Shown here: piece by piece, positions 3,405 to 44,323 of the stretch
How the letters are laid out: every line of letters begins with the position of its first letter
Numbering within the stretch: the stretch's first letter is position 1
Source of the DNA: Candidatus Bathyarchaeota archaeon
GTDB taxonomy: Archaea; Thermoproteota; Bathyarchaeia; Bathyarchaeales; Bathycorpusculaceae
Length of the DNA: 64,000 nt
Assembly (NCBI GenBank): GCA_963811105.1
Contig: CAWEPZ010000002.1
Coordinates: 32,001 to 96,000 of the forward strand
Reading direction: 5' to 3'
Translations under genes and position numbers: made by a program
The notes under the pieces: generated by a model
Databases searched by the model: none
What the model was told of the DNA's origin: nothing
What the model saw: the letters and a program-made list of their open reading frames with translations, nothing else

Positions 3405-4178
3405 ATGAAACTAATAGATGCGCATGTGCACCTTTCAGACGCAGAATACAGCAGCCACATTGAGGAATTAATTGCAGACGCAAAAAACACAGGTGTAAAA
3501 GCATTAGTGACAAACTCTGTGGATTTTAGAACTTGCCAAAACGACATATCGTTAGCCGAAAAATACTCTGGCCTAGTTTACCCTGCTTTAGGGATTCACC
3601 CCTGGAACGTTAACGTCCTTAAGGAAAACGAGATTGAGGAAACTATCGACTTCATCCAAAAACAAAGAAGCTGGGTTAAAGCAATCGGTGAAATAGGCTT
3701 AGACTGCAAATACGAAACTGTGTGGGAAAAACAACTAATGGTTTTTGACAAAATGCTTCATCTTGCTGAATCGCTTGAACTTCCTGTAATTATTCATTCC
3801 CGAGGAACAACAGACAAAATAGTAGATATGCTTCCTTCATACCGTCTTAAGCGCGTGTTGCTGCATTGGTTTAGCCATCCCATGAGTGCATTGTTCAAAG
3901 CAATGGATTATGGATACTTCATTACTGAAGGTCCACCTCTAACTTATTCAGTCGGCATCCGTGAAGTAGTAGCAGAAGTGCCGTTAACAAACTTCTTAAC
4001 AGAAACCGATGGTCCAGTAACATATTGGAAACGCCCTTACAACGGTCAATTAACCAAGCCTTCTTTCATACGCAATGTAGTTGAAGCAACAGCCGAGATT
4101 AAGAAAATGCCCGTTGATGATGTTGCCGAGCAGATTGCCAAGAACTTTGAAGTTTTCTTCAACATAAAACTAACTTAA
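3405..4178 (+). CDS. tatD: TatD family deoxyribonuclease
   Basis: DAHVH, GIHP, GEIGLD, HSR, ETDGP motifs; start moved to ATG 3405. Confidence 0.9.
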   Translation: MKLIDAHVHLSDAEYSSHIEELIADAKNTGVKALVTNSVDFRTCQNDISLAEKYSGLVYPALGIHPWNVNVLKENEIEETIDFIQKQRSWVKAIGEIGLDCKYETVWEKQLMVFDKMLHLAESLELPVIIHSRGTTDKIVDMLPSYRLKRVLLHWFSHPMSALFKAMDYGYFITEGPPLTYSVGIREVVAEVPLTNFLTETDGPVTYWKRPYNGQLTKPSFIRNVVEATAEIKKMPVDDVAEQIAKNFEVFFNIKLT

Positions 4179-40931: not shown

Positions 40932-42092
40932 TTGATGTTTGAATACGCTGACAGAATTAATCGGTTGCCCCCGTACTTGTTTGCTGAGATTGAACGGAAA
41001 ATAAAGGAAAAAAAGGCTCAAGGCGTCGATTTAATTTCTCTTAGCGTCGGTGACCCTGACCTTCCGCCGCCAACATTTATCACTGAAGCGTTAAAAGAGG
41101 AAGCAGCTAACCCTGAGAATCATAATTACTCGTTTAGCCAAGGTGAACCTGACTTTCGAGTTGCAGTTGCAGGATGGTGCAAGAACCGATTCAATGTTGA
41201 CTTGCAGCAGGATCAAGTGGTTGCACTTTTAGGTTCCAAAGAGGGTATAGCAAACATCGCGCGGGCTTTCATAAATCCAGGTGACCGTGTGCTTGTGCCT
41301 GACCCAGCTTACCCTGTGTACGCTAATGGCAGCACCATCCTTTGCGATGGGATCTCGGTGCCGCTACCACTTCTTGAGAAAAACGAATTCAGACCCGATT
41401 TTGACTCAATAAAGTCTGAGGGCGTTAAGATGATGTTTCTTAATTACCCCAATAACCCAACCGCTGCAACAATTGATAAAAAGTTTCTCAAAGAAACTGT
41501 AGAATTCGCTAAGGACAACAACATCATCCTCTGCTACGACAACGCATATTCAGAAGTCACCTTCGACCGCTATCGAGCACCTAGCATCTTGGAGATTGAG
41601 GGCGCTATGGATGTCGTTGTAGAATTTCATTCGCTTTCGAAAACCTTCAACATGACAGGCGACCGAATAGCCTTCGCCGTAGGAAATAAGCAACTTGTAG
41701 CTGGGTTAACGAAAGTGAAGTCACAAATCGATTCAGGACCACCAGTTTACACTCAAAAAGTCGCCGTTAAAGCCTTAGGTGCCTATACAAGCCGCGAAGT
41801 TCCAGAGTTCCTAAAGAAAAACAACCAAATCCTGCAAGAACGTCGTGATCTTCTTGTTGACATGCTCTGTAAAATTGGCTTCAAGTGTGACAAGCCTAAA
41901 GCTACGTTTTATGTATGGGTACGTTGCAAAGGCGATTCAATGGATTTCTCCACAAAACTGCTTGATGCTGGGGTAGCTGTGACGCCGGGCGTTGGCTTTG
42001 GCAAGTATGGTGAGGGTTTTGTCAGGATGACGTTTACGCAGCCAAAAGAACGCATTATTGAGGCCTGCAATAGAATAGCCCGAGCTTTCTAA
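40932..42092 (+). CDS. dapL: LL-diaminopimelate aminotransferase
   Basis: LPPYLFA, GSKEG, NYPNNP, DNAY, SLSKTFNMTG.R; last gene of the dap operon. Confidence 0.85.
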   Translation: MMFEYADRINRLPPYLFAEIERKIKEKKAQGVDLISLSVGDPDLPPPTFITEALKEEAANPENHNYSFSQGEPDFRVAVAGWCKNRFNVDLQQDQVVALLGSKEGIANIARAFINPGDRVLVPDPAYPVYANGSTILCDGISVPLPLLEKNEFRPDFDSIKSEGVKMMFLNYPNNPTAATIDKKFLKETVEFAKDNNIILCYDNAYSEVTFDRYRAPSILEIEGAMDVVVEFHSLSKTFNMTGDRIAFAVGNKQLVAGLTKVKSQIDSGPPVYTQKVAVKALGAYTSREVPEFLKKNNQILQERRDLLVDMLCKIGFKCDKPKATFYVWVRCKGDSMDFSTKLLDAGVAVTPGVGFGKYGEGFVRMTFTQPKERIIEACNRIARAF

Positions 42093-42154
42093 TCCTATTT
42101 TTGTATTAAAGAGGTTTTTAGGTACCGCTGTACTTCTATGGTGGCAGTTTTCTC

Positions 42155-42982
42155 TCAAAGTTTTAGGGTTTGTTCTATATCAGACTTAGACCCAACACCA
42201 GGCACCGAAGCAACAATCTCAACATCCCGCTCATTAGCAACGACTTCATCCTGCACACTGACAAACGACCCCATCCTAGCTTCAATATCATGAATTCTTT
42301 CGTTCAAATGATTAACCGTATCCGTCAACTCTTTGAGCACAAAAATATCCTCTTCACTCAGAGCACCTCTAGCACAGCTTTGATCTCATCGCTTCTGTTC
42401 TTAAGCCAAGTATTCTGAGTCTGCTCCAAAACATCCTCAACTGTCTTACCTACCATTAAGCCTTCAAGGATTTCCTTTCCAGCTTTACCGAAAACATCCT
42501 TAAGCCTTGAACCAAGCCTGATGTTCACCCTGTTTAGAACTTTATGACAACGGTTCTTAAACGCCGTCCTTGTTTGCACAAATTTAGCCCTCATCCTAGT
42601 CAACTCACGCAGTTCCCGAACGCGCCTCTCAGGAACATAACTGGGCTTTATTTGTCCACCCAAAAGCAAATGTGCAAGCCACTCAGAGCTGGATTGATCT
42701 GTTTTACGACCCGGAATAGCTTTTACCTGATGCGCATTAGCCAAAGAAACCTCAAATTTCGACTCTTCCAGGGCCAAATATAGAGGAACCCAGTAAACGC
42801 TGGTTGACTCCATAACTGCCTGGTTGCATTCAGACGCTTTGAGCCATCCCTTAAAGGTGTCTATGCCCTCTTCGTCGTTCACAAAGTGTTTAGTTTCTTT
42901 TGATTTATCGTCGGTAAGAACGGTTGCTACTAGCAAATCGCGATGTACATCTACACCGCAAGCTTTCTTAGATTTACTAATT
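42155..42982 (-). mobile_element. IS110-family transposase pseudogene (frameshifted, 3'-truncated)
   Basis: ACGVDVH, MEST..YW, PGRKTD, LRELTR, SVPGVG motifs. The start codon after RBS GGAGGTGA appears mutated, the fourth catalytic Asp is replaced, there is a frameshift near 42375, and the C-terminal domain is absent. Confidence 0.9.
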
Positions 42983-42998
42983 TTCGTTCACCTCCATT

Positions 42999-43160
42999 TT
43001 TAGAGTCGCCAGAAGATGCTCCTTTTAGGCATTGTTAGCATTTTGCTATCCGAGCTCGGGGCTCATCCATCTAACCGCCAAAGGAGCGCAAAACATTTTG
43101 GGTTACGAGTTTTCAAAAAATCCTCAAAAACAAATCGATGTTCCTTCCAGCGTCTCTAAA
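42999..43160 (-). ncRNA. Putative IS110 bridge RNA (structured non-coding end)
   Basis: Closing stem 43143-43160 pairs with 42999-43016 and encloses two stem/internal-loop/hairpin arms immediately upstream of the IS110 transposase. Confidence 0.65.
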
Positions 43161-43396
43161 TAAAAGAAGAGATAATAAACCGAAAAGGCTTTTCATTTCA
43201 TTCTAAGAGCGCTGCGATAATTTGGGTTGCTTTTTTGATTTAGGATCTGTGGCGTTTTCAGGTTGCGTATAGAAAAGTATTGAAACGTTTGGAAAAGGTG
43301 CAAAAAGGCAATAAAAGGATTGAAAAGGTTAAATAAAGACAACGTCAACATATTGGAAAAAATTTGAAGAATAAACAAAAAAGAAGGGTTAGTTGT

Positions 43397-44323
43397 TTAT
43401 TTTGCAGCTGCCTTTGCAAGTTTCTTTAAAATTGCCTCTTTAGCGATGGTGTACGCGATTGAGTAGTCAAATAGTCCCTGCGGTTCGTTGGTTGCGCGTT
43501 TAATCATTTCTGTTTCTGTCTTGATTTTCAGTTTGCCAATGGCTAATGCGCCTATGCCGTAAACGCCTGGTTTGAGTTCTATGCCATCGTCATTTGAGCC
43601 TAAGCCTTCCACACCTACGGGTTTTATGGCGTTGATGTCAGCAACTATTTTGCAGGATGTACCAATCTGTGCAGCAGATAGAAGCTGTATTCCGCCTGCG
43701 CCTGCTGAAAGAATGATTTCTGCTTCTTTTGTTGCTTCTGCTGTTTGTTCGGGTTTTGTTACTTCGACAACTTTGACTCTTTGTGCTCCGACTTCTTGGT
43801 TGATTTTGTCGGCGACAGCTTGCCCTTTTGCTAATGTACGGGAGGTGATTGTTACGTTTGCTTTTTCTGCAGCGTATATTCTTGCGGCTGTTTGGCCGAC
43901 GGGGCCTGTGCCTGCGAGTACGGTGACTTTTTTGCCTTCAAGTGTGCCAAAGCTTTTCTCCATTGCCAATCCGAAGGTTTTTGCTACCGCTGCTGCTGCG
44001 GTTGAGTATCCGCCTCTTGGGTCAACAATTATGCTGTTTCCCCATGGGGCTGATTTCATAGCTTTCTGTGTTGCCTCAACTACTTTTTCAACCATTTCGA
44101 AGTTGCTTCCGTTGATGAAGACTTTGGTGTGTTTTGCTCCTTCAGGTCCTCGTGGAAACAGCATGTCGTAAACGATTTTTGGGGCATCTTCAGCTGTAAC
44201 ATTTTCGTATTTGAAAATCATAGAATCAGGAAAAGCGTCTATAGCTACTAGCATATCAAATGGGCTGCAATATTTGTCCGTGTCTAAGAAAACGAAAACT
44301 GTTTTGAAACTTGGTTGTGTCAA
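43397..44323 (-). CDS. NAD(P)-dependent methylene-tetrahydromethanopterin dehydrogenase-like protein (MtdA/MtdB family)
   Basis: SPFD..VA.DA, FPRGP, DPRGGYSTAAA, GTGPVG, DINA. Confidence 0.8.
   Translation of the reverse strand: MTQPSFKTVFVFLDTDKYCSPFDMLVAIDAFPDSMIFKYENVTAEDAPKIVYDMLFPRGPEGAKHTKVFINGSNFEMVEKVVEATQKAMKSAPWGNSIIVDPRGGYSTAAAAVAKTFGLAMEKSFGTLEGKKVTVLAGTGPVGQTAARIYAAEKANVTITSRTLAKGQAVADKINQEVGAQRVKVVEVTKPEQTAEATKEAEIILSAGAGGIQLLSAAQIGTSCKIVADINAIKPVGVEGLGSNDDGIELKPGVYGIGALAIGKLKIKTETEMIKRATNEPQGLFDYSIAYTIAKEAILKKLAKAAAK

Follow-up and report, generated by a model that had tools for sequence, protein, structure and literature searches.

The locus

The window examined here is a stretch of 64,000 nucleotides (nt) of contig CAWEPZ010000002.1 from a metagenome-assembled genome (MAG) of a Candidatus Bathyarchaeota archaeon, referred to below as G000. 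Positions given without a locus handle are those of the window, and loci in other genomes and metagenome contigs are designated by L and a number. On the minus strand lies a copy of an IS110-family insertion sequence whose recombinase gene is preceded by a 162-nt structured segment. We conclude that this segment (42999-43160) very probably encodes, within the left non-coding end, the bridge RNA of a Bathyarchaeia insertion sequence that is now a relic. An archaeal IS110 bridge RNA had been proposed here from the letters alone (the original prediction), and the proposal is supported by covariation of the stems, by matches between the loops and the DNA, and by the IS110 recombinase gene downstream. 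The central features are the following:

42999..43160, minus strand: predicted bridge-RNA gene (closing stem P1 and two arms), recognised by fold and covariation, with the span originally proposed
42979..42995, minus strand: Shine-Dalgarno-like sequence GGAGGUGA (42995-42988) and ATT codon (42981-42979), placed by alignment with relatives
42358..42981, minus strand: open frame of the recombinase with its N-terminal DEDD (RuvC-like) domain, matching PF01548 (DEDD_Tnp_IS110) at E = 3.5e-29

The end of the RNA precedes the start codon by 17 nt. Residues 1-204 of the recombinase share 99% identity with L012. Both PF01548 and PF02371 (Transposase_20) are found in the intact elements L012 and L022, and L012 scores 272.6 bits against NF033542 ("IS110 family RNA-guided transposase"; cut-off 140); the RNA is located in the non-coding end beside a gene of this DEDD plus Transposase_20 type.

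Structure and covariation of the RNA

The closing stem P1 encloses two arms, and its strands and the two best-paired hairpins are positioned as follows:

43143..43160, minus strand: 5' strand of P1, pairing with 42999-43016; all 17 P1 pairs have changes on both sides in alignment A4
42999..43016, minus strand: 3' strand of P1, partner of 43143-43160
43107..43125, minus strand: hairpin P3 of arm 1 (GAGG ... ACUC), 83-85% of cells paired
43052..43064, minus strand: apical hairpin P7 of arm 2 (GAGC CCCGA GCUC), 85-86% of cells paired, the fourth pair being CG, UA or AU

P1 joins UUUAGAGACGCUGGAAGG (43160-43143) to UCUUCUGGCGACUCUAAA (43016-42999) on the minus strand over 18 positions, of which one is an A.A mismatch and three are G.U pairs. 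A closing stem of 18 positions with one mismatch had been proposed at exactly these coordinates, and both the minimum-free-energy and the centroid structures contain it. RNAfold assigns the minus strand -49.8 kcal/mol (z = -3.00), a value that none of 200 dinucleotide shuffles attains. A search of 41500-44000 against Rfam 15 at E up to 10 returned no match on the structure and two chance matches elsewhere (Lnt and snR40).

Arm 1 consists, in order, of helix P2, an internal loop and P3 (GGGG/CCYC in the family). P2 is ACACC/GGUGU in most copies, AGACC/GGUCU in L023 and AGGC/GCCU in L114; the AACAU/AUGUU stem first drawn for this arm is two bases off the family register, in which the window has U.U and C.U mismatches. 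Arm 2 is built from P4, P5, P6, an internal loop and P7 (GRGC/GCYC; GGGU/ACCC; GGGA/UCUC). P4 reads GCUCCU/AGGAGC, with ACUUCU/AGAAGU in L022 and GUCCCUC/GAGGGGC in L023, and P5 and P6 (GGC/GCC and GUUAG/CUAAC) are the weakest helices, with 57-61% of cells paired. The CCGAGCUCGG hairpin that had been assigned to arm 2 is replaced by the pairing of GAGC (43064-43061) with GCUC (43055-43052), which covaries as GGGC/GCCC, GGGU/ACCC and GGGA/UCUC.

Since the loops make MAFFT misalign the arms, the helices were written by hand from the window sequence and then counted in the alignments; RNAalifold applied to plain MAFFT alignments recovered the closing stem alone or nothing. Eight helices with 44 pairs were counted in two alignments, namely A3, a plain MAFFT alignment of 18 related copies that was not fitted to the structure, and A4, an alignment of 36 distinct copies whose fitting to the model biases it in favour of the structure. 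In A3, 76.0% of cells are paired, compared to 34-48% when the partners are slid by 1-3 columns, changes on both sides occur in 25 of the 44 pairs (11-16 when slid), and the covariation score is 0.262 (at most 0.127 when slid). None of 500 shuffles of A3 reached the observed value on four of five measures, and 4 of 500 did so on the remaining one, "further standard pair types". The corresponding values for A4 are 75.9% of cells (at most 46.4% slid), 41 of 44 pairs (18-25 slid) and a score of 0.335 (at most 0.131 slid), with 0 of 500 shuffles reaching the observed values. Lack of covariation among homologous IS110 left ends had been named beforehand as a possible refutation of the bridge RNA; both alignments contain a conserved structure with two internal loops whose stems covary.

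The first internal loop and the insertion target

The two sides of the arm-1 loop and the DNA segments with which they are compared are:

43126..43136, minus strand: 5' side of the putative target-binding loop, GAUUUGUUUUU, complementary to core and right target in the top strand
43095..43106, minus strand: 3' side of the same loop, GUAACCCAAAAU, in the same sense as left target and core
43225..43335, minus strand: left flank, one copy of a repeat of ~110 nt with the predicted target at its end, recognised by matches in related genomes
43221..43230, minus strand: left target half GCAACCC and A-tract core AAA, directly 5' of the element, in a flank common to the window, L012 and L022
42166..42174, minus strand: right flank, consisting of AA and the right target half CAAACCC; orthologous to L022 from position 3749, flank 97% identical

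Both sides of the loop are hypervariable between copies, and the 3' side is identical, in the same sense, to part of the left flank of the element that carries it. The shared string is AACCCAAA (8 nt) in the window, L012 and L022, GACTTAAAAA in L015, GGATTAAAT in L021, GAGCTAAAAT in L111, TAGATAAA in L018 and AGCTAAAC in L023. Having the sense of left target plus core, the 3' side would pair with the bottom strand. The mean longest common string of the 3' side is 7.0 with the element's own flank and 4.29 with the flanks of others (0 of 20000 permutations, n = 21), and a test that is free of element boundaries, comparing the RNA with upstream positions -130 to -40, yields 7.2 for own and 5.5 for other sequences (0 of 20000, n = 34). 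An unbiased scan of 42 distinct RNAs against their own upstream 110 nt for exact matches of at least 8 nt detected 45 same-sense matches, 24 of which lie in the tenth of the RNA that holds the arm-1 3' side, together with 12 reverse-complement matches that are scattered. The relation between left guide and flank still holds at approximately 34-45% protein identity (L094, L092, L064, L057, L041 and L034).

The reverse complement of the 5' side, AAAAACAAATC, matches the right junction AAAACAAA in L012 over 8 nt, and the 5' side matches the right flank with AAATTGGG (8 nt) in L014 and with AAAAAAAGAA in L015. In the window, CAAA of CAAACCC and the preceding A-run match the reverse complement of the 5' side. 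For this right target guide the mean is 5.7 with own and 4.4 with other flanks (n = 10 elements; 50 of 20000 permutations reach the sum), a weaker signal owing to the A-rich sequences and the shortness of the guide. The two guides fall on opposite strands of the target and overlap at the core, the A-tract being present in both. A failure of this loop to match target sites had likewise been set beforehand as grounds for refutation, and both of its sides match their own flanks.

The ~110-nt repeat is intergenic and has many copies in related genomes of the genus, with 6-7 matches each in several of them. The query for these comparisons was the window segment 43225-43460, of which positions ~130-236 match related genomes; the repeat loci compared are L134 and L140-L152. 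G000 itself contains one weak extra copy (L140). All of the uninterrupted repeat copies, 13 from other genomes and L140, read past ..AAAAAAGCAACC, after which 7 of the 14 continue with CAAAACACAAAG and 7 with close variants. By these comparisons, the repeat end is the predicted insertion target of the elements in the window, L012 and L022, and the empty sites give the target as GCAACCC - AAA(A) - CA.., with the A-tract as core. Nine exact copies of the predicted 13-nt target are left in G000.

The second internal loop and the donor ends

The arm-2 loop and the parts of the left end that matter for the donor are:

43065..43075, minus strand: 5' strand of P6 and 5' side of the putative donor-binding loop (GUUAG AUGGAU), with a same-sense likeness to the L012 left-end segment CTTAGAAGTGAA
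43039..43051, minus strand: 3' side of the putative donor-binding loop, GGAUAGCAAAAUG (also as GAUAGCAAAAU), in the sense of the right end CATAGC and core
43177..43196, minus strand: left sub-terminal inverted repeat ATGAAAAGCCTTTTCGGTTT, whose right-end partner is missing in the window
43201..43220, minus strand: degraded left-end terminus, a remnant of the terminal imperfect palindrome, with gaps relative to L012

The 3' side of the arm-2 loop reads as the right end followed by the core (CATAGCAAAA in L012 and L013), and it shares 8-10 nt with the element's own right end in 8 of the 10 elements that have a right end. Its variants recur in the own right end: AUAGC, AUAGA in L015, AUAGG in L017 and L018, AUACA in L110 and AUGGC in L022. 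The expectation that this loop matches the donor is borne out on the 3' side by the right end, and not on the 5' side, where no convincing complement to the left-end start was found. One candidate for such a complement, a 4-nt AGAU:ATCT pairing with a bulge, shows no covariation and fails in L023, L016, L024 and L111.

What the 5' side resembles, in the same sense, is a segment of 7-10 nt bounded by the left sub-terminal repeat on one side and the terminal palindrome (left end +1..+22) on the other. The match is ACAAATTAG in L094 (9 exact), GAGACAAA in L023 (8 exact; 9 of 10), CTGGAAGAA in L172 (9 exact, the sole two copies in the locus) and GCTGGAxGAAT in L027 (10 of 11; 9 of 10 in the scored window). 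The relation is clear in these divergent members, and weak and gap-dependent in the subclade of the window. An ungapped same-sense comparison with the left end over 21 elements gives 6.19 versus 6.0, i.e., almost no signal, and the gapped local score is 4.83 with own, 4.16 with others' and 3.84 with shuffled sequences. A tentative and on the whole doubtful reading is that the clade, from Bathyarchaeia to metagenome relatives at ~34% identity, would be an IS110/IS1111 intermediate that reads its donor in a way undescribed for IS621, with both sides of the donor loop in top-strand sense, the 3' side copying the right end and core and the 5' side copying the 7-10 nt between palindrome and left repeat. 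If this were true, extrusion of the palindrome could let the RNA base-pair along an unbroken segment of the donor bottom strand; an RNA/DNA four-way junction would then arise from P6 and the DNA hairpin, and the entire top strand would remain available to be cut and transferred.

The sub-terminal inverted repeats are exact over 14-20 nt in 6 of the 9 elements measured (20 nt in L012) and over 8-11 nt in the other 3. A 3-nt extension precedes the A-tract at the right end, and a 7-nt spacer precedes the left repeat at the left end. The arms of the terminal imperfect palindrome (e.g., L015:2250-2272) change together between lineages (AAAGC/GCTTT, GTGCGC/GCGCTC, AAAAC/GTTTT, AAAGT/ACTTT and CACCGCCG/CGGCGGTG), and its second half resembles the right end (TTTCATAG). 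Two other roles considered for the left-end start were rejected: as a 5' stem-loop of the RNA, the palindrome has 0 to -2 kcal/mol in most copies and is strong in L114 and L172 alone, and a conjectured TATA-like sequence is not in keeping with L012 or the window.

The behaviour of the two loops also bears on the possibility that the structure is a cis-acting 5' leader of the recombinase mRNA, which would control its translation or stability and have no guide function. Such a leader would be expected where the structure is found, ending three bases before the ribosome-binding sequence GGAGGUGA and the start codon that follows. It would, however, give no reason for hypervariable loop sides that copy the element's own insertion flank and right end, and P1 leaves the ribosome-binding sequence uncovered. 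We consider this explanation very unlikely.

Relatives and distribution

Relatives of the putative bridge RNA and its recombinase were sought in genomes and metagenomes. The scan of species-representative genomes returned 15 loci, mostly in Bathyarchaeota/Bathyarchaeia MAGs, 7 of which have full open frames of 408-446 codons (L012, L013, L014, L015, L016, L018 and L022). Intact copies, which the original prediction had proposed to look for, exist in near-identical form in another MAG (L012) and in contigs of soil, peat and sediment metagenomes. A protein-profile search of 401 genomes of the class at E <= 1e-80 detected 9 genomes, 8 of them in the genus of the window (its own genome counted), with internal stop codons at 6 of 12 places.

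The covariance model R1, built from 18 sequences including the window copy, has RNA hits at 43 places in the genus, spread over 21 of 120 genomes. The window RNA scores 153 bits, a match that follows by construction because it is among the 18 model sequences. Of the 79 loci of the metagenome scan (~31-50% protein identity), 11 are matched by R1 at E <= 1, among them 5 at E <= 0.01; each match spans the full length, has the orientation of the recombinase gene and lies immediately 5' of it. Relatives of 31-40% identity make up most of that scan because the peptide patterns chosen were general; close to the window are only L031 and, at a greater distance, L027-L029.

L022 is the orthologous locus in another MAG, and its right flank is 97% identical to that of the window. 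It holds at the same site an intact IS110 element of a different lineage (~74% protein identity), and the two elements have an identical left guide, AACCCAAAA. This looks like either independent RNA-guided insertions into one chromosomal site or a replacement.

Two further loci have unusual arrangements. In L014 (2380-2500 and 3725-3800) the element body is inverted relative to its termini, with a reverse-complement right end to the left of the left sub-terminal repeat and a reverse-complement left terminus to the right of the right repeat, a layout that fits inversion through recombination between the inverted repeats. The left guide of the element in L114 (2880-2960, minus strand), TAGAAAAC, finds its match in a flank resembling another copy's right end, TTTTTCATAGAAAAC, which suggests that the element may have inserted next to, or into, a sister element.

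State of the element in the window

Two features mark the damage to the recombinase gene:

42373, minus strand: frame-shifting deletion of 1 nt, seen as a gap relative to L012
42175..42340, minus strand: out-of-frame fragment up to the start of Transposase_20 (..VPGVG..), where the element stops abruptly at 42175

The window copy and L012 are 98.0% identical over 1068 nt (43234-42175), with 11 substitutions and 8 single-base gaps, the latter at 42373, 43176, 43200 and five at 43213-43220; a missing G accounts for 4 of the 8. All of these differences fall in the ~900 aligned nt outside the RNA, and the 162-nt RNA itself has 0. About 450 nt of L012, comprising the C-terminus and the right end, are absent from the window copy, and past the element end at 42175 comes the aminotransferase gene of the flank. 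Judged by its sequence, the window copy is a relic, with a frameshifted and truncated recombinase, a lost right end and small deletions in the left terminus and the spacer segment; it has neither an intact recombinase gene nor both ends. The transposase had been called dead at the outset, in agreement with the frameshift near 42373, the cut of Transposase_20 at 42175 and the missing right end. With the recombinase cut and the right end gone, the RNA gene is intact in sequence and is left without enzyme or donor.

The undamaged form is found in contigs of four metagenome runs, which have an extra base at 42372-42373 (two contigs) and a full left terminus; contigs from X1 and X2 run on past 42175 into sequence unlike that of the window. 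The contigs of the four DNA runs cover the insertion-sequence part, not the window's own flanks, and are silent on the population of this genome.

The truncation joins internal ..CTGATATAG to AA and CAAACCC (42175-42181), and the internal ATAG resembles the tip CATAG of the right end; the deletion at 42175 may have used a pseudo right end.

The codon at which the recombinase frame begins is ATT both in the window (42979-42981) and in the otherwise intact L012 (L012:2504-2506), 6-7 bases past GGAGGUGA. Relatives have ATG or TTG at this position, and the contigs of the four metagenome runs show no difference there. This is either a non-canonical start or the mark of a weakly translated lineage.

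The original prediction had also suggested that the RNA might be used in trans by an intact copy. According to this explanation, the RNA would still be transcribed and would serve an intact recombinase of the same lineage that comes from an unassembled copy or from incoming DNA. The RNA is identical to that of the intact L012 while the rest of the relic differs by the 11 substitutions and 8 gaps, IS621 bridge RNA supplied in trans works according to text passages of Durrant 2024 (PMC11208160), and the nine exact predicted 13-nt targets in G000 and the near-identical intact elements in metagenome contigs of several studies point the same way. The absence of differences in 162 nt is, however, only mildly unexpected, with a rough chance of a few percent to about ten percent, and the relic, having no right end, could not serve as donor. 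Moreover, the host genome G000 (3.49 Mb in 15 contigs, 96.65% complete) contains one DNA copy, one protein match, one PF01548 match and one R1 match, each of which is the window locus, and trans use is unsupported in this genome. We regard it as improbable and consider the bridge-RNA gene in the window a remnant.

Evaluation and proposed mechanism

The fold, the covariation of its stems and the agreement between loops and DNA are direct observations. Based on analogy with IS621 and the IS1111 seekRNAs, we propose the following mechanism. Arm 1 would be the target-binding loop, the 3' side of which would base-pair to the bottom strand at GCAACCC and the A-tract core, while its 5' side would anneal to the top strand at the core and the right target CAAA. 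Arm 2 would be the donor-binding loop, its 3' side carrying the sense of the right end CATAGC and core. A recombinase tetramer loaded with the RNA would then link the target to a copy of the element in circular form.

Several points weigh against this interpretation. Transcription, the choice of the transcribed strand, protein binding and recombination are taken over from the known systems. Among the sequencing runs listed as containing this stretch there is no RNA run. The plus strand folds about equally well (-44.0 kcal/mol, z = -2.91, 2 of 200 shuffles), and in A4 the cells with G.U number 103 versus 125 with A.C, so that the opposite strand would pair as well (77.3% versus 75.9%) and the count leaves the transcribed strand undecided. 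The match to the left flank is poor in 4 of 21 elements (L005, L017, L024 and L014), although in L014 the mismatch arises because the element body is inverted between the sub-terminal repeats and the guide matches the flank beside the displaced left terminus (TGGTAAA). The permutation counts for loop-flank matches overstate their significance because related copies are not independent. At the donor, the right ends of L031 and L118 (2 of 10) differ from the loop at the variable base, and the 5' side of the loop has no convincing complement to the core and left-end start, where the IS621 rule puts the right donor guide. As regards the state of the element, the eight gaps relative to L012, including the frameshift near 42373, could be errors of long-read assembly, and the death of the gene is shown firmly by the truncation at 42175 alone. 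Finally, insertion sequences often fail to assemble in MAGs, and for this reason G000 could hold an unassembled intact copy.

The strand counts lead to a further alternative: the pairings would belong not to a sense RNA but either to the DNA of the left end, forming cruciforms or sites for recombinase binding, or to an antisense transcript. The strand tests do not discriminate between these cases, and two features of the left end are of a DNA type: sub-terminal repeats, 14-20 bp long in 6 of 9 elements, and a terminal palindrome with little strength as an RNA hairpin. In contrast, a nested multi-helix fold of 160 nt with internal loops is a known RNA design, an 18-bp stem whose strands are 126 nt apart is an unlikely protein-binding site, and, according to text passages of Durrant 2024 and Siddiquee 2024, the bridge RNA of IS621 and the seekRNAs originate in the non-coding end and run in the direction of the recombinase gene, as far as the cases covered go. 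We assign this alternative a very low probability and retain the sense bridge RNA.

The principle of RNA-guided recombination by these elements is known and unchanged by our results, and large surveys have already reported many variant bridge RNAs. The present case confirms that a bridge RNA can be recognised by reading raw sequence, and the RNA found belongs to Bathyarchaeia, a lineage of uncultured archaea. Beyond its record of a past insertion, the window copy has no biological consequence. The family, with the intact L012, L015, L022 and others, offers a ready test system for an archaeal RNA-guided recombinase: its left target guide is long (~7 nt and core), its natural target is defined and empty sites are in hand. 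The odd donor-loop match bears on the relationship between IS110 and IS1111 and on how the donor is read.

Comparison with known systems

The statements in this section refer to the text passages of the cited papers. The Evo-PIN survey of 2026 (bioRxiv 10.64898/2026.10.21.760802) reports 32,190 bridge RNAs and 86 models from bacterial and archaeal intergenic sequence, including many structures that depart from IS621 and yet covary with target and donor. The RNA family of the window probably belongs to one of its clusters, and the passages of the survey text covered here name no archaeal or Bathyarchaeia example. Vaysset 2024 counted 662 archaeal IS110 recombinases, whose RNAs are not described in the text passages of that paper. 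Our literature search, which covered the text of papers, turned up no publication devoted to a bridge RNA of Bathyarchaeia or of archaea; the design may already be in print, and the six other bridge-RNA designs of Durrant 2024 may include it.

In IS621 (Durrant 2024, PMC11208160), the 5' side of the target loop reads the bottom strand over 8-9 nt and the 3' side reads the top strand over 4-7 nt, and the left target guide reads the flank beside the RNA-bearing end. As in IS621, the RNA of the window family is located in a long left non-coding end, 5' of and co-directional with a gene of the DEDD plus Transposase_20 type, it comprises two stem-loops whose internal loops are large, the first variable and reading the target and the second conserved and reading the donor, and the target is a genomic repeat. 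Unlike in IS621, the long bottom-strand guide is found on the 3' side of both loops, which departs from the IS621-type order of guides, and a covarying closing stem of ~17 bp surrounds both arms. Where IS621 has a CT core and sub-terminal repeats of 2-3 bp, the window family has an A-tract of 3-4 nt and exact repeats of 14-20 bp in 6 of 9 elements (8-11 in 3). Complementarity of the donor loop's 5' side to the left-end start, as in IS621, is replaced here by a same-sense match to a segment inside the left end.

The IS1111 seekRNAs of ISEc11, ISPa11 and ISKpn4 (Siddiquee 2024, PMC11187229) have the top-strand target match 5' of the bottom-strand match, and IS1111 elements carry sub-terminal repeats of 11-13 bp with 7-bp and 3-bp extensions and a non-coding region downstream of the gene, with a few upstream exceptions. 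The window family has the same order of matches, which overlap in the target, and likewise has long, near-perfect sub-terminal repeats, counted here as reaching ~11-13 bp or more, the window itself keeping the left repeat alone. Its 3-nt right extension and 7-nt left spacer recall the 3-bp and 7-bp extensions of IS1111, and ISPa11 similarly uses repeats of the repetitive extragenic palindromic (REP) type as targets. In contrast to IS1111, the RNA lies upstream of the gene, the element running for ~26 nt after the stop codon in L012, L015 and L022, a further palindrome of ~22 nt sits at the left terminus, outside the 7-nt spacer, and the donor loop is a simple internal loop. The family thus mixes features of IS110 and IS1111, combining an RNA 5' of the gene with long sub-terminal repeats and a seekRNA-like order of guides.

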